This document shows, in pieces, positions 19,958-60,886 of a DNA stretch of 64,000 nt. Origin of the DNA: Candidatus Eiseniibacteriota bacterium (lineage in GTDB: Bacteria > Orphanbacterota > Orphanbacteria > Orphanbacterales > Orphanbacteraceae); the NCBI GenBank assembly GCA_043809585.1, contig JBDROZ010000111.1:50320-114319 (forward strand). The letters run 5' to 3'. A program made the position numbers and the translations under genes. Every line of letters begins with the position of its first letter. Position 1 is the first letter of the stretch. The notes under the pieces are model-generated. The model worked only from the letters and a program-made list of their open reading frames with translations, did no database searches and had not been told where the DNA came from.

Positions 19958-22900
19958 ATGGTCCCCCCTGGGCATCGCGGCACGGCCTTTGCTGTTAGGC
20001 TGGGTCCGGGGGGGAGGTCCCCCGGTTTCGTCCCGAAACTCCATCACCCCAGACACGACGGGCCGCCCCCGCGGCCGGAACCGAGAGTGATCTTGAAGGT
20101 ACGGCCCATCGCCGGAACTCGTCTTCGTCTCCGCGGAGGGCCCGCGGGGATCCTGGTTCTTCTTCTCGCGGCGCCGGCGGCCCTCGGGGCCGACCTGACC
20201 CTTCTCTGGACCGCTCCCGCGGAGAACGGCGCGGCCGGGGGGCCCGCAACGGCCTACGATCTGCGCTATTCGAACGCGCCCGTCGGGGGGGACACGCTCG
20301 GGTGGTGGAACGGCGCCGTTCCCGTGCCGAACGAACCGGTCCCCGGCACGCCGGGGTCGCCCCAATCGCTCGTCGTGAGCGGCCTCGACCCGGCGACCAC
20401 CTACTACTTCGCCCTCCGCTCCGCCGACGAGGAGGCGAACGTCTCCCCCTTCTCCAACGTGTTCGAATTCGCCACCGGGGACACCACGGGCGGGGACCCG
20501 GGCGGGCTCGTCATCAGCGGCGTGACCGTGGACTCGATCGGCGGCGATTCGGCTTTCGTCGCGTGGTCGACGAATCGTGACGCACGGGGGTTGGTTCGGT
20601 ACGGACCGGACGGCGGATACGGGAGCGAGACCGAAACGGAGACCGATTCGACGATCCTCCACGGCGTCTGGATCGGCGGACTCGGAGAAGGAACCCTCGT
20701 CCACTACCAGGTCGTCTCCTTCGCGGGGGCCGACCGTGACTCCACCGCCGACGCCGCTTTCACCACCGCCGACCCGCCCCCGGCCCGGCCGGCCGGGTTC
20801 GACCACGTGGACGGGGAAGGGGAGGTGACACTTCTCTGGCAGGCGAACCAGGAGCCCGACCTCGACGGCTACCGGGTCTACTGGGAGGCGAGGGACCGCG
20901 CCGACGACGGCCGCCTTCTGGACGAGGACTTCGAGACGAGTCCCGTAGGGGCCCCGCCTTCCGGGTGGGCCATCGAGACGGACGCCGGGACCCCGGCGAG
21001 CGTCTTCTTCGTGCAGAGCGATCCGGGGCGGGGCCGCGCCGTGCGTGCGACCCCGAACGGAGCGGGCTACCGGGCCCGCTATGCCCCTTCGCCGTCCCCC
21101 GCCTGGGGGGACGTGGAGTGGCGCGGCGCCTTCCGTTTCTCCACCGGTGCCGGGGCGGACGTGGAGATCCGGAGGGGGGGAGGTGCCGCCTATCGGATCG
21201 GCTTCGCTCCGGACGGAGCCCCCCGGGCGGAGAAAGTCGGCGGCGGATCGCTCGTCTCCCTCGGCTCCCTCCCCACCTCGTGCGGCCCCGGCGGGTGGGT
21301 GCGATTCCGGATCAGCGCGTGGAACCGCCCCGAAGGCGTCCTTCTCCACGCCCTCTTCTGGCCCGAGGGAGAGGCCGAGCCGCTCCGCCCGACCCTGGCG
21401 GTTCTCGACACGGGGAGCCTCCCGGCCGCCTCCGTAGCCCTTCGCGCCTCCGGAACCGGGGAGGTCTGGTTCGACGATCTCGCGGTGACCGCCCTTCCCC
21501 CTTCCACGAACGAGGTCGATCGCTCCCTGTTCGTTCAATGGACCCACGGGGGCCTTTCCGCCGACTCCTCCTATCACTACCGATTGGAAGCGGTCGACGG
21601 CAACGGCTCCGCAGGCCTCCCCGCCGGGCCTCTCATCGGATACCCCGCCGGCGAAGAGGGGACGGACGTCACGCCCCCCGCGGCCATCGCCGATCTGGCG
21701 GCCCTTCCCGGAAACGGCTTCGGCGAGGCGCGGCTCACGTGGACCGCCACGGGGGACGACTCGACCTCGGGCCGGGCCCTCTCGTACGATCTCCGGTGGT
21801 CCCCCCAGCCGATCAATCCGGAGGTGTGGCCCGCGGGCACCACGAAGCTCTACACCGGAACCCCCCTTCCTGCCGGAGGAGGGGAGACCTACACCTTCGC
21901 CGGCCTGCCGGCGGGCTCTACGGTCTGGTTCGCCCTGACCGCCCAGGACGACGGGGGCAACGAATCGGATCTCTCGAACATCGTCCCCCTCGACCTTCCC
22001 GCCGACACGATCGCGCCGGTCCTCACGAACATCCGGACCGAGAACGTCACGGACGGAAGCGCCGAGGTCGCATGGACGACGAACGAGTCGTCGGACGGCG
22101 AGGTCCGGTACGGTCTGACCGACTCGTACGAGATCGGACTGGTGGGGGAGGAATCGGGAGGGACGTCTCACCGGGTCACGCTCTCCGGCCTCGCGCCGGT
22201 GACGCTCTATCACTACCGCGTCCGCTCCACCGACGGGGCGGGCAACGCATCCGAGTCGGGAGACAGGACCTTCGTCACCGCCGAGGAGGCGGTCGGCGTC
22301 CCCGTCATCTCTCATCTGAACATCGCCGCCGTCTCGGACACGGAAGCGGTGATCGAGTTCATCACCGACATCTCCGCCGTCGGATCGATCGACTACGGGG
22401 CGGACACGACCTACGGGGAGACGGTCTCCGAATCGGCGTACGGAACCGCCCACTCCCTCCGGCTCGCCCCGCTGACCGCGGGCGCGGACTACCACTTCCG
22501 GGCCCGGGCGACCGGCGAGGAAGGGGGGACGGCGGTCACGGAGGATCAGACGCTCACCACCTCGTTCGAGCAGGATCCTCCGCTCTTCAGCCAGATCGAG
22601 GCGACCGAGATCGGCCCGTCGGGGGTCACCATCCGGTGGCGCACGAACGAGGGGGCGACGGAGCGGGTCGAGTACGGGCCGACCGGGAGCTACGGAAGCT
22701 GGTCGGCCGGGGACACGACGTACACCTACGACCACGAGGAGCGCCTCGACGGCCTCGCGTCCTCCACCACGTTCCACTACCGCGTCCACGGGCGGGACCG
22801 GTACGGCAACCGCGCCTTCTCCGAGGACCGGACATTCACGACCGCCGCCGCGGGCGACCACCGGGCCCCGCTGCTCGCGGGGGTCGAAGCGGACAGCGTC

Positions 22901-25192
22901 TGGCCCGGGGGGGCGAGAATCGTCTGGACATCGGACGAGCCGGCGGACGGCCAGGTCGAGTACGGGCAGGATCTCCCCTACGACCGGGCGACTCCGCTCG
23001 ACGAGACCCTCGCCGAAGGGCACGCCGTCACGATCCGGGGCCTCGAACCGTCGACGACGTACCACTTCCGGGTCCTCTCCCGGGACGGGAGCGGAAATCT
23101 CGCGGGATCGGGGGACCGCACCTTCACGACGACGCCGCCGGACGACCTCGACTCCCCGGGAATCTACGGGATCGTCCTCGAGGGCCCGACGGCCTCGGGA
23201 ATCACGGTCGCGTGGCGAACCGACCGGGCGGCCTACGGCCAGGTCGAGTACGGCCCCGCCCCGGGGTTCGGCTCCCTTTCGGCGCCGGAGACGGCGGCCG
23301 ACACGCTCCATTCGATCCGCATCGAGGGACTGACCGCGGGGGTGACCTTCCGGCTGCGGGTGCTCGCATGGGCAGAGGGGGGACCGGTCGTCCTCTCGCC
23401 GGACACGATCTTCGTTCTCGACGGCGGAGGGGACGTCGACCCTCCGGGAATCGTGGCCATCGCCGTCACCGGGGTCGGCGAATCGTCGGCGACCATCGAA
23501 TGGACCACCGACGAGCCGGCGGAGGGGCAGATCGAATACGGGAGCGGCGACGGGAGCGGTTACGACCGGGCGACGCCGTGGGACGGTTCCCTCGGGACGG
23601 CCCACACGGCGCGCATCGAAGGACTCGCGCCCCGGACGACTTACCGATTTCGGCTCTTCGCGAGAGACGGCGCCGGCAACCCGGTCTATTCGGAAGAGCA
23701 CGGGTTCGCGACGACGGGCGCCGTGGACTCGCTCCCGCCGACGGTGAGCGGCCTGACCATCGCCGATCTCGGCGACGGCGTTCGTCTCGCCTGGAGCACC
23801 GACGAGGGGGCGTGGGGGCACGTGGACTACGGGCTCGACAGCACGCTCGGCCTCGAAACGGAGACCGGCCCGGGCCCCGGCGTGCTCCATCAATTCGACG
23901 TGATCGGCCTCGCGGCGGGCGTGCCGTTCTACTTCCGGGCCGCGGCCGAGGACGCCGCGGGCAACGCCGGATACTCGGAGATCCTCGCCCACACGGTGGG
24001 GGCGGCGCCGGACACGACGTCGCCGGTCTTCACCGGAGAGGTCGTCGTCCAACCGGGCGTCCGGGATGCGACAATCCTCTGGGCCACGGAGGGGCCTTGC
24101 CGGGGAACGCTGGAGTACGGCACCGACCCGCACGACCTCGATCACTCCGTCTCGGAGCCGGACTACACCCTCGTCCACCGGATCGTCGTCGGCGGCCTGG
24201 AGCCGGAGACCACTTATCACTTCCGCCTCCGCTGCGTCGACCTTTCGGGGTACGAGACGGTCCGGAGCGGCGAGTCCTTCACCACGGAAAGGGAGACATC
24301 GGCGTTCCCCCCCACGATCGTCTCGCTGACTCTCTCGAACCGGACCCCCGAGGGCCTCCACATCGCCTGGGAGACGGACCGGCAGGCGGTGGGACAGGTC
24401 GAGTTCGGGGAAGGGGAGCAGATGGCCCATGCCACGGCCATGTCCTCGGTCTTCACGAGGGAGCATATCGACCGGCTCGGCGGACTGACGCCGGGAAAGG
24501 CATACACGTACCGGATCCGGGGGATGTCTCCCGAGGGGCTCTTCTTCTTCTCCGCGCCCGACACGTTCCGCACGCCCGAGGACCGGACCGGGCCGCCACC
24601 GCCTCACATGAAGGAGGCGAGCGAGATCGACGAGGGGATTCAGATCGCCTGGCGGCCGGAGGAGGGGGAGGTCGCTCATTCGCTGGCCCTCCACCGGCGC
24701 TTCCTGCCGGGGGGGCAGTGGAAGACGATCTGGGTCGCCACGGGCCGGGAGACGACGTACGTGGACCCGGTCGCGCCCGTGGACCTCACGGGAGTCGAGA
24801 AGGCCCAATACTACCTGGAGGCTTTCGACGCCTACGGGAACGGCACGTCCGGGGACACGATCGACGTGTTGATCTTAATGCACGCGGCCGAAGGGGTCCC
24901 CCTCTTTCGACTGCTCCCGAACCGGCCGAATCCCTTCAACCCGACCACGACGATCCCCTTCGAGCTCCCTTCCTCCCCTTCCGAACCGCACCTGGTGACG
25001 ATCACGGTCTACAACGTGGCGGGGGAACGGCTGAAGGTGCTTCTCGACAAGATCCTCACGGCGGGAACCAAGAGCCAGACAACCTGGGACGGCACGGACT
25101 GGCGCGGAGAACCGGTCGCGTCGGGCGTCTACTACTACCGCTTCACCGCCGGCTCCTACTCCGAGACGAAACGGATGACCCTGATTCGGTAG
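19958..25192 (+). CDS. Giant secreted protein: signal peptide, about 14 tandem FN3-like beta-sandwich modules, lectin-like insert, C-terminal T9SS sorting domain
   Basis: Repeated modules of about 100 aa share the pattern W.T.E...G.VEYG....YG......H...L.GL.P.TTYH[FY]RV.S.DGAGN. The C-terminus (LLPNRPNPFNPTTTIPF...GVYYYRF...KRMTLIR) matches the T9SS Por_Secre_tail. The true start may be the GTG/TTG near 20087-20093, just before the signal peptide. Confidence 0.8.
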   Translation: MVPPGHRGTAFAVRLGPGGRSPGFVPKLHHPRHDGPPPRPEPRVILKVRPIAGTRLRLRGGPAGILVLLLAAPAALGADLTLLWTAPAENGAAGGPATAYDLRYSNAPVGGDTLGWWNGAVPVPNEPVPGTPGSPQSLVVSGLDPATTYYFALRSADEEANVSPFSNVFEFATGDTTGGDPGGLVISGVTVDSIGGDSAFVAWSTNRDARGLVRYGPDGGYGSETETETDSTILHGVWIGGLGEGTLVHYQVVSFAGADRDSTADAAFTTADPPPARPAGFDHVDGEGEVTLLWQANQEPDLDGYRVYWEARDRADDGRLLDEDFETSPVGAPPSGWAIETDAGTPASVFFVQSDPGRGRAVRATPNGAGYRARYAPSPSPAWGDVEWRGAFRFSTGAGADVEIRRGGGAAYRIGFAPDGAPRAEKVGGGSLVSLGSLPTSCGPGGWVRFRISAWNRPEGVLLHALFWPEGEAEPLRPTLAVLDTGSLPAASVALRASGTGEVWFDDLAVTALPPSTNEVDRSLFVQWTHGGLSADSSYHYRLEAVDGNGSAGLPAGPLIGYPAGEEGTDVTPPAAIADLAALPGNGFGEARLTWTATGDDSTSGRALSYDLRWSPQPINPEVWPAGTTKLYTGTPLPAGGGETYTFAGLPAGSTVWFALTAQDDGGNESDLSNIVPLDLPADTIAPVLTNIRTENVTDGSAEVAWTTNESSDGEVRYGLTDSYEIGLVGEESGGTSHRVTLSGLAPVTLYHYRVRSTDGAGNASESGDRTFVTAEEAVGVPVISHLNIAAVSDTEAVIEFITDISAVGSIDYGADTTYGETVSESAYGTAHSLRLAPLTAGADYHFRARATGEEGGTAVTEDQTLTTSFEQDPPLFSQIEATEIGPSGVTIRWRTNEGATERVEYGPTGSYGSWSAGDTTYTYDHEERLDGLASSTTFHYRVHGRDRYGNRAFSEDRTFTTAAAGDHRAPLLAGVEADSVWPGGARIVWTSDEPADGQVEYGQDLPYDRATPLDETLAEGHAVTIRGLEPSTTYHFRVLSRDGSGNLAGSGDRTFTTTPPDDLDSPGIYGIVLEGPTASGITVAWRTDRAAYGQVEYGPAPGFGSLSAPETAADTLHSIRIEGLTAGVTFRLRVLAWAEGGPVVLSPDTIFVLDGGGDVDPPGIVAIAVTGVGESSATIEWTTDEPAEGQIEYGSGDGSGYDRATPWDGSLGTAHTARIEGLAPRTTYRFRLFARDGAGNPVYSEEHGFATTGAVDSLPPTVSGLTIADLGDGVRLAWSTDEGAWGHVDYGLDSTLGLETETGPGPGVLHQFDVIGLAAGVPFYFRAAAEDAAGNAGYSEILAHTVGAAPDTTSPVFTGEVVVQPGVRDATILWATEGPCRGTLEYGTDPHDLDHSVSEPDYTLVHRIVVGGLEPETTYHFRLRCVDLSGYETVRSGESFTTERETSAFPPTIVSLTLSNRTPEGLHIAWETDRQAVGQVEFGEGEQMAHATAMSSVFTREHIDRLGGLTPGKAYTYRIRGMSPEGLFFFSAPDTFRTPEDRTGPPPPHMKEASEIDEGIQIAWRPEEGEVAHSLALHRRFLPGGQWKTIWVATGRETTYVDPVAPVDLTGVEKAQYYLEAFDAYGNGTSGDTIDVLILMHAAEGVPLFRLLPNRPNPFNPTTTIPFELPSSPSEPHLVTITVYNVAGERLKVLLDKILTAGTKSQTTWDGTDWRGEPVASGVYYYRFTAGSYSETKRMTLIR

Positions 25193-25367: not shown

Positions 25368-25441
25368 GTGAGCCGTGTAGGGCTCGAACCTACGACTTCC
25401 TGCTTAAAAGGCAGGTGCTCTACCGACTGAGCTAACGGCCC
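25368..25441 (-). tRNA. tRNA-Lys (anticodon UUU)
   Basis: The minus-strand cloverleaf has a 7-bp acceptor stem (GGGCCGU/ACGGCUC), a D-arm GCUCAGUCGGUAGAGC, the anticodon loop CUUUUAA and a T-arm GGUUCGAGCC. No CCA is encoded. Confidence 0.85.
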
Positions 25442-28619: not shown

Positions 28620-28665
28620 CCCGGGCCCTTCGATACGGACCTTCGGTCCTACTCAGGACAGGCCT
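28620..28665. repeat. Repeat family A copy (ccttcgatacgg...cctactcaggac structured element)
   Basis: Shares about 40 bp with the elements at 54181-54245 (inverted) and 58504-58545. Confidence 0.6.
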
Positions 28666-28689: not shown

Positions 28690-28860
28690 GCGTGGGAGCG
28701 GCTCCGGGAGGGATGAAGGGGCAGACTTGAACGCTCGTCGTGCTGCGGGAGTCAACCCTCCCATTCTCCGGGCTCGTAGAGGAGGCGCCCAGGAAGACGG
28801 CAACAACTCCCCGGTTATGCCCCCATCCCTCCCGGAGCCGCTCCCCCCGCCTCGCCGTCC
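28690..28860. repeat. Repeat family C copy (about 170 bp)
   Basis: About 85-90% identical to 42185-42350 (cggctccgggagggatg...gaacgctcgtcgtgctgcgggag...cctcccattctccgg...ctcgtagaggaggcg...). Confidence 0.65.
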
Positions 28861-41892: not shown

Positions 41893-42350
41893 TGGGTGTG
41901 GTGCTCACCCCGAAGTGGCTATCTTCCTCGGACTCCTCTTCTGCACCCTGGAATGGTGATCTTCGTGTGCGGTATCCCCCCTGAGGGGGACAGGGTCCGC
42001 TGAGGTCAGACCGATATCTTCCGAGCCGGAGGCTCGGGCGGAACCAGTCCCCCGCTCACTCCGAAGCTGGTGGGCGAGGTTAGATTCCGGATATCCCGAA
42101 GTGGCTATCTTCCTCGGGCTCCTTTTCTGCACCCTGGAGCAGTCGTGTTCGCGCTCAGTATCCGTCCGGAGGGCGGTGGGGCGGGGGGACGGCTCCGGGA
42201 GGGATGCGGGTTAGACTAGGACGCTCGTCGTGCTGCGGGAGCAAATCCTCCCATTCTCCGGCCTCGTAGAGGAGGCGTTTCGGAAGGCGGCAACAGCTCC
42301 CCGGTGATGACCCGATCCCTCCCGGAGCCGTCTCCCCGTCCCGCCGATGA
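41893..42350. repeat. Composite repeat locus: family B (inverted, plus a partial tandem duplicate) followed by family C
   Basis: 41930-42075 is the reverse complement of 28889-29020. 42085-42150 is a partial direct duplicate of 41893-41950. 42185-42350 matches 28690-28860. Confidence 0.65.
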
Positions 42351-54159: not shown

Positions 54160-54180
54160 GCTAATAGTCGTACGGGCGGG

Positions 54181-54245
54181 TCCTTCGATACACGGCTCCC
54201 GGAGCCTGTCTTGAGTAGGACCGAAGGTCCGTATCGAAGGGGCCA
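54181..54245. repeat. Repeat family A copy (about 65-nt hairpin element closed by ccttcgatac / gtatcgaagg)
   Basis: Nested stems ggctcc/ggagcc and ggacc/ggtcc sit inside a 10-bp terminal inverted repeat, immediately 3' of the gene ending at 54159. Confidence 0.6.
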
Positions 54246-54567
54246 CGGCACTCAGGACGAACGGGGAGAATGTCGCGCGGCACGAACGGAGCATACGACC
54301 AAAGACCCGGGAAGGCGAACGCCATTCCCTCCCCTCCGAGCGGCAGTCCTTGTTGATCATTCACCACAACGGGCGGGTGGCCGGGGCAGGGGTCCGGGAG
54401 AAGCGCAGCCACCAGCGCATGAGGAATCCGAATAGGATAGACCAGAAACAGCAGTACGGACGGACCGGCTCGGCATTCACGCAGAGCCATGACGATGGTG
54501 GCGAGCATTGCACCGGACAGCCCCGGACAGGACCCGCCCGTACTACCACCCGGCAGAGGATGCCGTG

Positions 54568-55489: not shown

Positions 55490-58474
55490 ATGCGGCCGTC
55501 CTTCAATCGTATCTGCTACCTTGCTCTTTGCGTTCTCGTCTCGATCTCCCCGGCCATCGGCCAAGTAAAACAAGACCCCAAGTTCCTTTTCGCCGACCCC
55601 TTCATCGGCACCGGCGGCCACGGACACACCTATCCGGGCGCGACAATGCCCTTCGGCATGGTCCAGGTCTCTCCCGACACGCGGCTCACCGGCTGGGACG
55701 GATGCTCGGCCTATCACTTCACCGATTCGGTCGTCTACGGCTTCAGCCACACTCATCTGTCAGGAACGGGATGCTCCGACTATGGGGACATTCTCTTGAT
55801 GCCGGGGACGGGGAGGATCTTCCTGAACAACGGCGCGGAGACGGGACCCGACTCGGGCTACGCATCCCGATTCACCCACGGTTATCCGGCGGAAGGAGCG
55901 GGGCCCGGCTACTACATGGTCCATCTCGACGACTACGATACCGACGTGGAACTGACCTGCACGGACCGCGCGGCGATGCACCGGTACAGTTTCTACGACG
56001 CCGACTCGGCGTGGGTCGTGCTCGATCTGGAGCACAGGGACGAGCTGGTCGGCTGGGACCTTCGGACGAACAGAAGAGGGGAAGTCGAAGGGTTTAGGCA
56101 ATCGAGAGCTTGGGCGAAGGACCAGTACGTCTACTTCGTCATCCAGTTCTCTAGGCCGTTCGATCTCTGGGGGCCTTTGACCCGGAAGATCGACAAGCCA
56201 ACGCCCGTCTCGACGCCCGGAATAAACGAGAAGTTTGGCCCAAAGGCTTGGTTCCTCATTCCTCAAGGCGGCGAGTTGCTCGTGAAAGTCGGAATCTCCG
56301 CCGTCGACGTGGAGGGGGCGAGGAAGAACCTCGAAGCGGAGCTTCCGGGCTGGGACTTTCAAGGGACCCGGGAGGCGGCCGAGCGTCGCTGGAACGACGC
56401 GCTGAAGCGGATCGAGATCACGGGCGGCGCGGCGGAGGAAGACAAGACCGTCTTCTACACCGCCCTCTACCACGCCCTCCTCTGCCCGAACCTCTGGTCC
56501 GACGTGGACGGGCGGTACCGGGGAATGGATAACCAGATCCATCAGGCCGAAGGCCACGACGTCTACACGGTTTTCTCCCTCTGGGACACGTACCGCGCCT
56601 CCCATCCGCTCTTTGCGATCCTGGAACCCACGCGGACCCTCGATTTCATGCAGACCTTCCTCCGCATGTACGAAGAGGGAGGGCACCTGCCGGTCTGGGA
56701 GCTCGCGGCGAACGAGACGTGGACCATGATCGGCTATCACGCGGTGCCGGCCATCGTCGACGCCTACGCGAAGGGGATCCGCGGCTTCGACACGGAGAAG
56801 ATGTGGAAGGCGATCTTGGAGAGCGCCGAGTCGGACCGGGAAGGGCTCGCCGCCTACCGGGCGAACGGCTACCTCCCTTCCGACGAGGAGGGGGAATCGG
56901 TCTCCCGCACGCTCGAGTACGCCTACGACGACTGGTGCGTCGCCCGCATGGCCGACATGCTCGGCAAGGGATACTTCCGGGAGAAGTACCTCCGCCGCGC
57001 CCAGTACTGGAAGAACCTCTTCGATCCGTCGACGAAGTTCTTCCGGGGGAAGGCGGGCGGCCGGTGGCACGAGCCGTTCGACCCGACCGAGGTGAACTTC
57101 CTCTACACCGAGGCGAACGCCTGGCAGTACCGTTTCTGCGTCCCCCAGGATGTCTCCGGTCTGATCGAGAGGATGGGGGGGGACGAGGCGTTCATCCATG
57201 AGCTCGACCTCATGTTCGACTCCTCCTCGGAGATGGCGGGGCGGGAGCAGTCGGACATCTCCGGCATGATCGGCCAGTACGCCCACGGCAACGAGCCGAG
57301 CCACCACATGGCGTACCTGTATTCGTATGCCGGCGCGCCGTGGAAGACCCAGCGCCGGGTCAGGACCATCATGGACTCCCTCTACACCACCGGCCCCGAG
57401 GGTCTCTCAGGCAACGAGGACTGCGGTCAGATGTCGGCGTGGTACGTCTTCAGCGCCCTCGGCTTCTATCCCGTGACGCCGGGGAGCACGATCTACGTCA
57501 TCGGCTCCCCCCTCTTCCCGGAGGCGACGGTCCGCCTCCCGAACGGGAACCGGATCACGATCCGCGCCGAGGGGGTCTCGGAGGAGAATGTATACATTCA
57601 ATCGGCGACACTTCAGGGCGAGCCGTACACGAAGGCATATCTGACTCACGAAGACCTGATGGCGGGAGGCGACCTTGAGTTCGTCATGGGACCGGCTCCG
57701 AACGAGTCGTGGGGGACGGGGGGCGGCGACCGGCCTGTGCAGTCGATCGATCTCTTCCCGATCACGCCGGTCCCCTACGTCGCCGAAGGGGACCTCGCCT
57801 TCGCGGACTCGACGAAGATCGTCCTTGCCGCGCCCGAGCCGGAGGCGGCCGTCTACTACACTCTCGACGGCCGCGAGCCGAACGCCTTCTCGAAGAGATA
57901 CGAGAAGCCGATCGTTCTCCGCGAATCGGCCACGCTGAAGTCGGCGGCGTGGATGGAGGGACGTCCCCAGAGCAAGACCGTGACCGCCCGTTTCGCGAAG
58001 ATCCCCGGCGGGCGAACGATCGAGCTCGGCGCGGAGTACAGCCCCCAGTACACGGGAGGAGGCGCCCTCGCGCTCATCGACGGTGTCCGGGGGAAGCCGA
58101 ACTTCCGGACCGGCGCCTGGCAGGGGTACGAAGGGGTCGACGTGGAGGCGACGGTCACCCTCGGCGGCGTCTATCCGATCCGCCGGGTCGCCGTCTCGTT
58201 CCTCGAGGACGTGGGGGCCTGGATCCTCTTCCCGAAGCGGGTGGAGATCGAGATCTCCACCAACGGGACAACGTGGGAGACCCTGTTGGACGACACGATC
58301 GAGACGGAGGAGGATTATCCCGAACCGAACATCCGGGAGTTCGCCGTGGACGGGCTCGGCGCCGAGGCGGCCTACGTCCGGCTCCGGGCGAAGAGCATGG
58401 GCGACCTTCCCCAGTGGCACCGGGGCGCGGGCGGGAAGGCGTGGGTATTCGTCGACGAGATCGCGATCGAGTAG
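55490..58474 (+). CDS. GH92 family alpha-mannosidase with C-terminal F5/8-type-C (discoidin) carbohydrate-binding domains
   Basis: Signal peptide. GH92 N-terminal and catalytic regions (GTGGHGHTYPGATMPFGMVQ, ...NEDCGQMSAWYVFSALGFYP), then a discoidin-like C-terminal 250 or so aa. Confidence 0.85.
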   Translation: MRPSFNRICYLALCVLVSISPAIGQVKQDPKFLFADPFIGTGGHGHTYPGATMPFGMVQVSPDTRLTGWDGCSAYHFTDSVVYGFSHTHLSGTGCSDYGDILLMPGTGRIFLNNGAETGPDSGYASRFTHGYPAEGAGPGYYMVHLDDYDTDVELTCTDRAAMHRYSFYDADSAWVVLDLEHRDELVGWDLRTNRRGEVEGFRQSRAWAKDQYVYFVIQFSRPFDLWGPLTRKIDKPTPVSTPGINEKFGPKAWFLIPQGGELLVKVGISAVDVEGARKNLEAELPGWDFQGTREAAERRWNDALKRIEITGGAAEEDKTVFYTALYHALLCPNLWSDVDGRYRGMDNQIHQAEGHDVYTVFSLWDTYRASHPLFAILEPTRTLDFMQTFLRMYEEGGHLPVWELAANETWTMIGYHAVPAIVDAYAKGIRGFDTEKMWKAILESAESDREGLAAYRANGYLPSDEEGESVSRTLEYAYDDWCVARMADMLGKGYFREKYLRRAQYWKNLFDPSTKFFRGKAGGRWHEPFDPTEVNFLYTEANAWQYRFCVPQDVSGLIERMGGDEAFIHELDLMFDSSSEMAGREQSDISGMIGQYAHGNEPSHHMAYLYSYAGAPWKTQRRVRTIMDSLYTTGPEGLSGNEDCGQMSAWYVFSALGFYPVTPGSTIYVIGSPLFPEATVRLPNGNRITIRAEGVSEENVYIQSATLQGEPYTKAYLTHEDLMAGGDLEFVMGPAPNESWGTGGGDRPVQSIDLFPITPVPYVAEGDLAFADSTKIVLAAPEPEAAVYYTLDGREPNAFSKRYEKPIVLRESATLKSAAWMEGRPQSKTVTARFAKIPGGRTIELGAEYSPQYTGGGALALIDGVRGKPNFRTGAWQGYEGVDVEATVTLGGVYPIRRVAVSFLEDVGAWILFPKRVEIEISTNGTTWETLLDDTIETEEDYPEPNIREFAVDGLGAEAAYVRLRAKSMGDLPQWHRGAGGKAWVFVDEIAIE

Positions 58475-58503
58475 GAGAGTGTTGATGGCTCTTCCACCCG
58501 GCG

Positions 58504-58840
58504 CCCTTCGATACGGATTCCGCTTCGCGGATCCTACTCAGGACGAACGGGTGGGGGGAACAGGACAAGACAACCGTTCGCCCTGAGTAGACTCGACCGT
58601 TCGACCCCGCGCCCCGGCGGGTCGAAGGAAGAGGCGTATCGAAGGGCCGTCCGCACCATCCGGTCCCGTATTCCTCGGGCTTGGGAGATCGTGCCCGGGG
58701 CGCATTCCTCGGGCTTGGAAGGTGGCGGGACGAACGGGTGGGGGGAACAGGACAAGACAACCGTTCGCCCTGAGTAGACTCGACCGTTCGACCCCGCGCC
58801 CCGGCGGGTCGAAGGAAGAGGCGTATCGAAGGGCCGTCCT
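58504..58840. repeat. Tandem perfect direct repeat (2 x about 112 bp, 75-bp spacer) plus a family-A-like 5' flank; highly structured
   Basis: 58541-58652 and 58728-58839 are identical. Nested stems: cccttcgatacg/cgtatcgaaggg, ctactcagg/cctgagtag, gaacgg/ccgttc, gaccc/gggtc. Confidence 0.7.
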
Positions 58841-58873
58841 CGTCATTCGGTCCGACTCACCGACGGAGGGAGT

Positions 58874-60463
58874 ATGGAGAGACCGCTCGTCGTTTTCGAG
58901 TTCCTGGACTGGTTCTGGCTCGTCGCCTTCGTGGCGCTGATGGCGGGGAGCGGGTTCCTCTTCTATCGCCTCGGCAAGCGCTCGGAGTCGGACTTCTTCC
59001 TCGCGGGCCGGGGTCTTCCCTGGTGGCTCCCCGCGTCGTCGGTCTACGCCACCCACACGGCGACGGACACGCCCATGTGGATGTCGGGCGTCATCTACCG
59101 CCACGGACTCGCCGGCCTCTGGTACAGCTTCTTCGCGGCGTGGTGCGCGGTGAGCGCCTTCGTCTCGACCAAGGTTTTCCGCCGCTCCCTCGCCTACACC
59201 CAGGCGGAGTGGCAGTCGATCCGCTTCGGCGGGCTCTCCGGCGAACTCCTCCGCGGATGGGTCGCCGGGTGGCAGGTCTTCCTCAACATGTTCATCCTCG
59301 GTTGGGTGGGCATCGCCATGGGGAAGGTGTGCGGCCTCCTCTTCGGCTGGCCCCCCTGGATCGGCCTCGTGGTCTTCTCGTCGATCTGCGCCGTCTACGT
59401 TCTCGCCGCCGGCTACTGGGGCGTGGTGATGGCGGACTTCCAGCAGGGGATCATCGCCTTCGTCGTGATCGTCATCGTCTCCTTCTGGGGGATTCACGCG
59501 GCCGGGGGGGCGGGGGCGATCGTCGACAAGCTCGGCGCCCTCGGCGAGGCGGGGAAGATGAATCCCTTCGCCTTCACGGGGGTCTTTTCGGGGGATTTCC
59601 CGCTCGCCTGGTTCGTCACCATGCTGGTGATCGGCATTCTCGGCGGCCTAGGCATGGCGACGGCGATCGACTGGTTTCCCGAAGCCCAGAGGATCCAGTC
59701 GGCCCGGACCGTCAAGGACGCGTCGTGGTGCATCTGGGCCGGCTCGGCCCTCGTCCTCGTCCGGAACGGGCTCTGGGGGGCGGCCGTACTCGGCTTCTTC
59801 GTGCTCTACCCGGAGATGACGGAGGTGAAGGAGTACGAGATGGCGTGGTTCCGCCTCGGTTTCGAGAACTTGCCGGTCGGAATGATCGGGTTCTTCTTCG
59901 CCGCCCTCGTGGCGATCCACATCTCGACCATCTCGAGCCACCTGAACCTCGGCGCCGTCTACGTCACCCGGGATCTCTACCACCACTACCTCGACCCGAA
60001 GGCAACGGAGCGAAGCCTCGTCCGGGTCGGGCGCCTCGCGACCCTCGTCCTCCTTCTCGGGTCGTTCGTCTTCGGCTCGATCATGGAGAACATCACCGAG
60101 TGGCTCATCTTCGCCCTCTGGATCATGGCGGCCGGCGTCTGGCTCCCGGGCATCCTCCAGGTGATCTGGTGGCGCTTCAACGGGTGGGGCTATCTCTCGG
60201 CGTGGATGGTGAACCTCGTCTTCTCGTGGCTCGTGGTCTGGGTGCTCCCCGCCTTCGGGGTGATCCCGAAGCTCGCCGACTACCAGCAGTTCTGGATGCT
60301 CATGATCCTCGGCGCCCTCGTCTTCATCCCCGTGACCTTCGCCACGAAGCCGGAGAGCATGGACCGGCTCGTAAAGTTCTACGTCATGTCCCGCCCCGTC
60401 GGGTGGTGGGGACCGGTCCGGCGCGAGGCGATCGCCCGGGGCCTGATCGAGGAGGTGGGATGA
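58874..60463 (+). CDS. Sodium:solute symporter family (SSF) transporter
   Basis: 529 aa, about 13 TM helices, GGAGGG RBS. SSF-like conserved region in TM1-2 (FFLAGRGLPWW). Confidence 0.85.
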   Translation: MERPLVVFEFLDWFWLVAFVALMAGSGFLFYRLGKRSESDFFLAGRGLPWWLPASSVYATHTATDTPMWMSGVIYRHGLAGLWYSFFAAWCAVSAFVSTKVFRRSLAYTQAEWQSIRFGGLSGELLRGWVAGWQVFLNMFILGWVGIAMGKVCGLLFGWPPWIGLVVFSSICAVYVLAAGYWGVVMADFQQGIIAFVVIVIVSFWGIHAAGGAGAIVDKLGALGEAGKMNPFAFTGVFSGDFPLAWFVTMLVIGILGGLGMATAIDWFPEAQRIQSARTVKDASWCIWAGSALVLVRNGLWGAAVLGFFVLYPEMTEVKEYEMAWFRLGFENLPVGMIGFFFAALVAIHISTISSHLNLGAVYVTRDLYHHYLDPKATERSLVRVGRLATLVLLLGSFVFGSIMENITEWLIFALWIMAAGVWLPGILQVIWWRFNGWGYLSAWMVNLVFSWLVVWVLPAFGVIPKLADYQQFWMLMILGALVFIPVTFATKPESMDRLVKFYVMSRPVGWWGPVRREAIARGLIEEVG

Positions 60464-60753
60464 TGGGATTCATTCGGAGATCGTGGACGCCCGCGGACGC
60501 CGAGGGATGGTCGAAGGAGGACACCATCGCCGTCGTCGTCTCGCCGCTCATTTACATGCTCCTTCTCGTCGGCGTCGCCCTCGCCGCCCTCGCCCGGCCC
60601 GCGGGTTACATCCTCACCGGGCTCGCGGTGGTTCTCATCCTGCTCCTCGTCTTCGTGATCAATCCGAAACTTTCGGCCGTTTCCGAGGAGTACGAGAAGA
60701 AGCAGAAGGAGTATCTCGAATCTCTCGACCGCAAGATGAAGTGGGAGGAGTGA
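60460..60753 (+). CDS. Small two-TM membrane protein co-transcribed with the SSF transporter (possible symporter small subunit)
   Basis: ATGA overlap with the SSF stop. 97 aa, two hydrophobic helices, KE-rich C-tail, strong GC3 bias. Confidence 0.55.
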   Translation: MMGFIRRSWTPADAEGWSKEDTIAVVVSPLIYMLLLVGVALAALARPAGYILTGLAVVLILLLVFVINPKLSAVSEEYEKKQKEYLESLDRKMKWEE

Positions 60754-60754
60754 C

Positions 60755-60886
60755 GTGAGCAACGAACTGAAGATGGTAATCGGCATGTCCCTCGCGTACG
60801 TCACTTCCTTCGCGGGGCTCCTCCTCGCGTATTGGTCGTGGAAGAAACACCACGGGAAGGGAGGTACGGAACGTGATGAACGCTGA
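60755..60886 (+). CDS. Candidate single-TM micro-protein (about 37-43 aa)
   Basis: GTG 60755 (a GGGAGGAG RBS lies 4 nt upstream) or ATG 60773. Sequence MVIGMSLAYVTSFAGLLLAYWSWKKHHGKGG; GC3-rich codons. Confidence 0.3.
   Translation: MSNELKMVIGMSLAYVTSFAGLLLAYWSWKKHHGKGGTERDER

Follow-up and report, generated by a model that had tools for sequence, protein, structure and literature searches.

The stretch of DNA analysed here, a 64-kb length from Candidatus Eiseniibacteriota bacterium that we call the window, carries a gap of 399 nt between a gene for a GH92 alpha-mannosidase-like protein and a gene for a sodium:solute symporter (SSF). The gap holds a nested palindrome and, downstream of it, a second copy of much of the same sequence. 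An earlier note on this DNA had read the two as a structured 5′ leader of the symporter operon, with a tandem riboswitch-like sensor among its options. We conclude that the gap is probably a small cluster of a dispersed, non-autonomous palindromic DNA repeat similar to the repetitive extragenic palindromes (REP) and bacterial interspersed mosaic elements (BIME), consisting of one complete element and a 5′-truncated copy and enlarged by recent local duplication or gene conversion. The features of the locus are as follows.

55490-58474, + strand: upstream gene, GH92 alpha-mannosidase-like, 994 aa, also with CHB_HEX_C and F5/8 type C domains
58503-58647: complete nested palindrome, 145 nt (I2 and I5 among the inverted repeats), with stem A/A′, hairpin 1, stem B/B′ enclosing a loop of 23 nt, and hairpin 2
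58505-58516, + strand: module A, 5′ half of the outer stem, CCTTCGATACGG; exact match to the family signature
58517-58532, + strand: hairpin 1, ATTCCGCTTCGCGGAT, closed by flanking GG/CC; the variable hairpin between A and B
58533-58550, + strand: module B, 5′ half of the central stem, CCTACTCAGGACGAACGG; the duplication begins within it, at 58541
58551-58573, + strand: central loop, 23 nt, G-rich; copy-specific, different in every family member
58574-58590, + strand: module B′, CCGTTCGCCCTGAGTAG; includes the GTAG tag; on the + strand it pairs with B save for one A·C mismatch
58591-58634, + strand: hairpin 2 region, stem TTCGACCC/GGGTCGAA around CGCGCCCCGGC, as taken from the folds
58635-58647, + strand: module A′, 3′ half of the outer stem, CGTATCGAAGGGC; 13/13 complementary to 58503-58515
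58653-58727, + strand: spacer, 75 nt, with its own 34-nt doubling (family D2), the box being found only at the GH92-SSF locus
58728-58839, + strand: second copy, 5′-truncated, with the 3′ part of B, loop, B′, hairpin 2, A′ and CGTCC; 100% identical to 58541-58652
58865-58870, + strand: symporter ribosome-binding site (RBS), GGAGGG, read from the sequence and outside the repeats
58874-60463, + strand: downstream gene, sodium:solute symporter, 529 aa; Pfam SSF, E = 1e-25

Both flanking genes had been named before and both are confirmed by Pfam, the upstream product matching Glyco_hydro_92 with E = 1e-190 and Glyco_hydro_92N with E = 2e-70. The parts of the complete element follow one another in the order A (CCTTCGATACGG), hairpin 1, B (CCTACTCAGGACGAACGG), the 23-nt loop, B′ (CCGTTCGCCCTGAGTAG), hairpin 2 and A′ (CGTATCGAAGG). 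Both of the pairings proposed earlier stand: the long-range one joins GCCCTTCGATACG at 58503-58515 to 58635-58647 with 13 of 13 bases complementary, and the inner one joins 20-nt arms at 58534-58553 and 58571-58590 that are 90% complementary. The G-rich loop given there as 24 nt measures 23 nt. Folded with RNA parameters the complete element (58503-58647) forms a four-way junction of -82.7 kcal/mol. As single-stranded DNA it is far more stable than shuffled sequences on either strand (z = -6.85 for the + strand and -6.54 for the - strand), and the topology is the same on both. The duplicated 112-nt unit by itself folds no better than its shuffles (z = -0.85 and +0.02). Thus the two folding units of the earlier note are in fact one complete element and a truncated copy of its right two-thirds. 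In the window element CTGA-GTAG is followed by hairpin 2 (58587-58634) and hairpin 1 is followed by CTAC (58515-58537), and the GTAG tags point inward in a tail-to-tail dimer. The half-module form, CTGA-GTAG, hairpin and CGTATCGAAGG, fits the GTAG-tagged REP type, with the two halves placed tail to tail.

The duplication was correctly described as regards its extent: 58541-58652 and 58728-58839 are identical over 112 nt and the identity breaks off at exactly these coordinates on each side. Beyond the copies the right flanks share 10 of the next 14 bases, and because of this partial similarity a repeat finder reports the pair as 126 nt at 97%. The 75-nt spacer with its doubled box is also as reported earlier, the two boxes lying at 58667-58687 and 58701-58721; they are 21 nt each, 90% identical and have a 34-nt period. 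The box core, ATTCCTCGGGCTTGG, has no further occurrence in the 64-kb window. The label tandem does not apply. Tandem Repeats Finder reports no head-to-tail array and the unrelated spacer parts the two copies, giving an arrangement of unit, spacer and unit (U-S-U) rather than U-S-U-S, and a plain head-to-tail tandem duplication is therefore rejected. The period of the two copies is 187 nt and their four junctions are all distinct sequences. Since the duplicated unit begins inside B, at GGACGAACGG (58541), the second copy is without A, hairpin 1 and the 5′ half of B (CCTACTCA); the unit ends five bases beyond A′. The last repeat ends 25 nt before the GGAGGG and 34 nt before the ATG (58874), the second figure being the one given earlier for the distance to the GGAGGG.

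The same gene pair is found in relatives. The nearest relatives of the symporter are 82-85% identical and come from metagenome-assembled genomes (MAGs) labelled Krumholzibacteriota, Latescibacteria and KSB1. Three relatives (contigs among L121-L124) keep the order GH92, SSF and a 96-aa open reading frame (ORF), with GH92-SSF spacers of 76, 58 and 31 nt, compared with 399 nt in the window. None of the repeat-family motifs is present at these three orthologous loci, and the insertion of the repeat cluster is specific to the lineage of the window. The earlier note had itself held that relatives with a short leader and the transporter still in place would tell against a leader, and this is the arrangement in all three. 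As the genes are co-oriented and only 31-76 nt apart in the relatives, we prefer to call the region an intercistronic gap and not a demonstrated 5′ leader. The small ORF that follows the symporter (~91-96 aa, without a Pfam match; 60483-60758 in the window, L121:5578-5868, L122:5604-5894 and L123:5686-5976 in the relatives) is conserved in the window and in all relatives examined.

The element also has relatives elsewhere in the window, as was claimed from its link to a repeat family A. With one mismatch or fewer, CCTTCGATACG has eight matches in the window where 1.8 are expected, and none of 100 shuffles reaches eight. Three of the matches are at the GH92-SSF locus and three at 28627 (+), 54182 (+) and 54240 (-), whilst those at 23612 and 41015 look like chance. 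The signature of A, hairpin and B recurs at 28627 (+) and 54240 (-), each time with the hairpin ACCTTCGGT. These copies, which have just 15-16-nt stretches in common with the GH92-SSF locus, are as follows.

28625-28660, + strand: solo left half (A, hairpin ACCTTCGGT, B), intergenic
54178-54242, - strand: short family element (A, ACCTTCGGT, CCTACTCAAGAC, hairpin, A′), between convergent genes
54250-54265, + strand: fragment of B, ACTCAGGACGAACGGG, beside the preceding element and between the same convergent genes

All family sites in the window are thus intergenic, in the GH92-SSF gap and in two gaps between convergent ORFs, and all three are downstream of genes. A second non-coding repeat family of ~130-160 nt, 85% identical and with palindromic ends GGGAGCGGCTCCGGGAGGGATG ... 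CATCCCTCCCGGAGCCGCTCCCC, is found at 28690-28850 and 42180-42340, and one of its copies directly adjoins the solo module at 28625. An intergenic 79-nt direct repeat, 81% identical, lies at 41909-41987 and 42095-42173; its spacing of 186 nt is near the 187 nt of the main duplication, and it carries a TCTTCCTCGGGCTCC-like box shared with the spacer box ATTCCTCGGGCTTGG, which may be a coincidence.

Outside the window we scanned for the pattern CCTTCGATACGG-N5-25-CCTACTCA, taking one genome per species, and found at least 120 stretches, where chance would give ~16-23 matches. The counts of neighbours, complete elements and RAYT genes (RAYT, REP-associated tyrosine transposase) given below rest on the matches listed, that is, on 120 loci of at least 120. 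The taxa among them include Sphingomonadales, Herbaspirillum, Herminiimonas, Gallionellales, Thiobacillaceae and deltaproteobacterial MAGs, together with Chloroflexi (Anaerolineales, Caldilineaceae, Kouleothrix), Binatia, Nitrospinota, Armatimonadetes and, from the Actinobacteria, Microbacterium and Nocardioides. The conserved modules connect genomes of at least eight phyla. In the 130 matches listed, the continuation after the pattern, which the search did not force, reads GG[AG][CT]G in 82% and GG[AG][CT]GA[AG][CG]G in 60%; the gap between A and B is 5-23 nt and contains a stem of at least five pairs in 35% of the copies, compared with 5% of shuffled gaps. Complete A...A′ elements number 31 among the matches listed, 94-175 nt long and with their parts in identical order, and GTAG or GGAG sits at the equivalent place in most of them. 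We aligned the 30 elements of 135 nt or less with the window copy. In this 31-sequence alignment the outer and central stems are preserved, in part because the search pattern demanded it, and six pairs have compensatory changes, mostly ATGAGC/GCTCAT versus ACGAAC/GTTCGT. Extra or variable outer stems are found in L113 and L056.

Among the matches listed, the gene gaps that hold the family motifs are in every case unrelated, one of them being cysD|cysNC of a Caldilineaceae genome. When ORFs of at least 100 aa were clustered no recurring neighbour gene emerged from the 120 loci, the biggest cluster having 7 of 120. L052 has two copies, one on either side of cysNC; we considered the 2.2 kb between the two modules as a composite element and rejected it, the insert being simply cysNC. 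Half-modules are also placed back to back, A′-N5-A junctions being common, and related modules reach 12 per 50 kb in S. parapaucimobilis. In an isolate genome of Microbacterium (L014:6415-6683) a module of A, hairpin and B is reiterated with its flanking DNA as a direct tandem array, 84 nt × 3.2 copies at 97%. A hairpin-less module array, CCGYTCGTCCTGAGGTATCGAAGG, in which A is joined straight to CTCAGG, lies downstream of the GIY-YIG gene of a Lysobacteraceae contig (L131:1107-1290); it suggests that the module type of the window arose by insertion of a hairpin (GG...CCTA) into the hairpin-less form. Searching the PLSDB plasmids with the element by blastn gave no match, and a metagenome scan with a 29-mer common to the two other window copies returned one short contig (L125) that added nothing.

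These properties correspond closely to those of known repeats. REP and BIME sequences have a GTAG tag beside a hairpin, form inverted dimers 20-100 bp apart and lie mostly between co-directional or convergent genes; in REP clusters the dimers are reiterated in tandem along with flanking DNA, a description that the U-S-U arrangement of the window fits (PMC3733652). Like the REP, BIME and REPIN sequences of E. coli, Pseudomonas and Stenotrophomonas, the present repeats are short, extragenic, imperfect, non-coding palindromes with a GTAG tag (PMC3733652), the known ones being serviced in trans and the present ones probably so, and they share with the REP/BIME class the inverted pairs that form a longer hairpin and the mosaic or tandem arrays in operon gaps and between convergent genes. 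The window element likewise resembles the GTAG-tagged REP superfamily (Di Nocera 2013) in its stem-loop with an unpaired GTAG tag, its extragenic inverted dimers and its clusters, although its hairpin 2, at 44 nt, is above the 20-40 bp typical of REPs. There are two further differences from the classical type. The present family conserves the sequences flanking the hairpin (CCTTCGATACGG, CTCAGGAYGARCGG) across phyla whilst the hairpin varies, the reverse of what is found in classical REPs, and its complete unit has the shape of a four-way junction, where classical REPs form a simple hairpin. With a RAYT sequence as query, no RAYT-like gene was found in 119 of the 120 loci listed, and the only one met is framed by a different REP. 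That gene, of the Y1 HUH type, is in a Caldilineaceae genome (L059:6465-6881), and the palindrome on its flanks, AAAACCCGTTTTCTTAAAGAAAACGGGTTTCT, has no relation to the present family. As for the window element, it is non-coding and palindromic, symmetric on its two strands, dispersed, patchy among close relatives and prone to local reiteration.

The only gene that we found framed by family modules encodes a GIY-YIG nuclease. At four sphingomonad loci a GIY-YIG gene of ~90 aa lies exactly between inverted half-modules (L049:7424-7805, L064:5957-6349, L082:489-950 and L108:980-1492), and L006 matches them in its neighbourhood, which there lacks the gene and has one module only. Retrieving GIY-YIG homologues from plasmids and assemblies by protein similarity alone gave nine distinct loci, with inverted family modules on both sides in five, on one side in two and on neither in two. 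In a module-rich Sphingomonas replicon ~13% of gaps have modules, and the chance of flanking on both sides is then ~2% per gene. Besides the four sphingomonad loci, such framed genes are seen in L126, L127, L129, L136 and L139; L139, one of the five loci flanked on both sides, has a perfect 29-nt module pair, CCGTTCGGTTCGAGCCTGTCGAGAACCGG. The genes are of the UPF0213 type and encode 90-130 aa, the nearest solved structures being UPF0213 proteins (PDB 1ZG2 and 1YWL), and the 3′ module often overlaps the final codons. They occupy differing operon gaps: nrdR|spoU, parA|parB, pilD|coaE, TPP-enzyme|aldehyde dehydrogenase and rnc|era.

This arrangement recalls that of SsnA (Chenal et al. 2025, PMC11893778), a single-strand DNA nuclease of the GIY-YIG class whose gene has NTS/dRS3 hairpin repeats on its flanks. 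In both, a small gene for a single GIY-YIG domain lies between inverted hairpin repeats that are also dispersed in the genome, for the present family in Sphingomonas, Methylobacterium and other Proteobacteria. It differs in the modules, CCGYTCRTCCTGAG...TCGAAGG, which by inspection are without the HGTCW head of the SRM consensus HGTCWYN(0-2)YYVSBRHN(0-5)WNVSBRGN(0-2)RNCYNB, and in the protein, which is nearest to UPF0213 and shares only 38% identity with the Ssn-like protein from L013. The latter locus (L013:4371-4820) has another GIY-YIG gene flanked by classic CGTC-tagged REPs, CCGTCATGCTGAACTCGTTTCAGCATCCA, in the textbook Ssn/SRM arrangement, with a module pair of our repeat family 600 nt away. 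By analogy, we tentatively propose that the window element is a member of a superfamily that crosses phyla (core TCGA...CTCAGG-RY-GARCGG, the inserted hairpin being present or absent) and that may be the DNA partner of UPF0213/YhbQ-type GIY-YIG nucleases, which would recognise its single-stranded four-way-junction or hairpin form and drive the spread or processing of the repeat; we regard this as possible, with the odds somewhat against it. A literature search pairing GIY-YIG with REP or MITE terms returned nothing.

Several observations weigh against the repeat interpretation as a whole. Only three family sites were counted in the 64 kb of this genome. A metagenome scan with a 24-mer specific to the window gave no match and thus no further copy of the exact subfamily, so the perfect identity of the window's two copies may reflect a local event only rather than transposition. 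Neither a target-site duplication nor an empty-site pair close enough to define the ends of the element was found. The 64-kb window has no RAYT-like gene, as judged with the same RAYT query, and no GIY-YIG gene; the flanking of GIY-YIG genes is limited to Proteobacteria, and some of these loci are orthologous (L049/L064/L082/L108, L126/L139 and perhaps L127/L129). For these reasons (loci partly orthologous and all proteobacterial, a window without the gene) the nuclease partnership is put forward as a hypothesis. Finally, in the centroid structure the duplication creates mutually exclusive pairings of A and B with either downstream copy, and an RNA-level role is possible.

Of the other explanations, the one that survives best, though it is improbable, is a classical miniature inverted-repeat transposable element (MITE), a deletion derivative of an insertion sequence (IS) with a DDE transposase whose terminal inverted repeats (TIRs) form the palindrome and which is mobilised in trans by the parent IS. 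The elements are indeed palindromic, non-coding, ~100-150 nt long, intergenic, dispersed and patchy across phyla, and the insertion at the GH92-SSF locus is lineage-specific. In being small, dispersed and able to alter the expression of neighbours they are like the MITEs Correia/NEMIS, RPE and ERIC. The 120 loci listed show no recurring transposase-like neighbour, however, and neither a parent IS nor a target-site duplication or other direct repeat at the element ends was seen; the only gene framed by modules is the nuclease of 90-130 aa. The conserved parts are the internal modules, whilst the outer stems vary, as in L113 and L056, and the modules occur tail to tail, head to head and in tandem arrays, the modular and mosaic behaviour of REP and BIME sequences rather than that of a fixed TIR-to-TIR unit.

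Slightly less probable again is an element under selection at the RNA level, for example one that stabilises mRNA between cistrons, a site of RNase processing or a small RNA, with the duplication tuning the ratio of GH92 to SSF expression. In E. coli, stable intercistronic REP stem-loops set the differential expression of malE and malF. The G-T pairs in REP stems and the preference of REPs for sites downstream of genes (PMC3733652) are consistent with such a role, as is the position of all three window copies downstream of genes. Against it, the relatives run an equivalent operon without the repeat, and the sole stem mismatch is A·C on the transcribed + strand, a G·U pair being formed only on the - strand.

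An error of assembly, in which the assembler would have taken a repeat the wrong way in its graph and so created the second copy, is very unlikely. The perfect identity over 112 nt and a period of 187 nt, near the length of a short read, are what such an error might produce, and the source appears to be an uncultured lineage, its nearest proteins coming from MAGs. It is the difference between all four junctions that makes the error unlikely. Assemblers do not invent right flanks that are similar without being identical (10/14), and comparable tandem arrays are found in the isolate genome of Microbacterium (L014).

The weakest is the tandem riboswitch-like or other cis-regulatory RNA leader that would sense a signal and control the symporter, which we consider highly improbable. 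The region is strongly structured as + strand RNA (-189 kcal/mol, z = -3.4) and lies directly upstream of the symporter RBS, and the alternative pairings of A and B with either downstream copy could suit a switch. Two similar structured units in series upstream of a transporter gene are also what is seen in the tandem glycine riboswitches and in tandem TPP or SAM riboswitches. Yet the region is absent from the three orthologous loci that retain the transporter, which largely refutes the reading; the motifs recur in other phyla, in gaps between unrelated genes, the fold of the - strand is just as good, and the second unit is truncated and does not fold by itself. The Rfam scan proposed earlier (Rfam 15, gathering score) gives, over the whole window, only a tRNA at 25369-25441, and at E ≤ 10 the interval 58400-58950 has just two chance-level matches, to eukaryotic families on the - strand, so that no relevant aptamer family is matched. 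Neither a sigma-70-like promoter nor a terminator-like site was found in 58200-59100, leaving no expression platform, and the RBS is outside the repeats, 25 nt past the last one. A search for a Bacteroidota-type TANNTTTG promoter also found none, although the promoter types of the window's phylum may not be covered by these searches. A hammerhead or other self-cleaving ribozyme, which CUGAGUAG had brought to mind, was rejected because its core motifs are a misfit and Rfam gives no such match.

We return therefore to the REP/BIME-like cluster. The second copy most likely arose very recently, by local duplication or by gene conversion between neighbouring copies. A recent local event is indicated because the identity is perfect and includes the copy-specific loop, because the other window copies share only their 15-16-nt stretches with it and because the metagenome scan gave no further copy of the subfamily. 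The partly similar right flanks favour conversion, or an older duplication that was later homogenised, and a burst of transposition is the less likely source of the perfect duplicate. Since the spacer has a 34-nt doubling of its own, the GH92-SSF gap is prone to slippage. Among the three options of the earlier note it is thus the recent duplication of a family-A-derived element that holds. By analogy with known repeats, the family probably owes its spread and maintenance to a process at the level of DNA, in which a nuclease or transposase encoded elsewhere acts in trans on single-stranded hairpin intermediates; the best candidate would be the UPF0213-type GIY-YIG nuclease, on the model of SsnA and NTS, with RAYT as the classical alternative. 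The only likely effect on the transcript would be incidental: as with the REPs of E. coli malE-malF, very stable stem-loops may protect the upstream GH92 message and uncouple or lower the expression of the symporter.

Repeats of another nature occur at 22060-24409 in the window, where eight copies, 60-80% identical and spaced at a period of ~288 nt, have the look of domain repeats within a large coding region rather than non-coding repeats.

As an object the cluster is ordinary in kind, a REP/BIME-like repeat cluster. A full-text search of the literature with DNA strings of the family and the peptides that they would encode returned only unrelated primers and no description of the family, which is unusual in its flanking modules conserved across phyla, its complete unit in the form of a four-way junction and its candidate UPF0213 GIY-YIG partner. 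For the GH92-SSF locus, the result removes a false riboswitch candidate and explains an odd 399-nt gap in a mannoside-utilisation operon as selfish or domesticated repeat DNA. If the partnership with the GIY-YIG nucleases is true, it would add another clade of nucleases and another class of repeats to those of the recent Ssn/NTS discovery, giving a function to the large uncharacterised UPF0213 family and a partner enzyme to a repeat class without one. It would account, too, for many spurious small ORFs and for the odd extensions at the C-terminus of annotated GIY-YIG proteins, and would be a source of new site- or structure-specific single-strand DNA nucleases.

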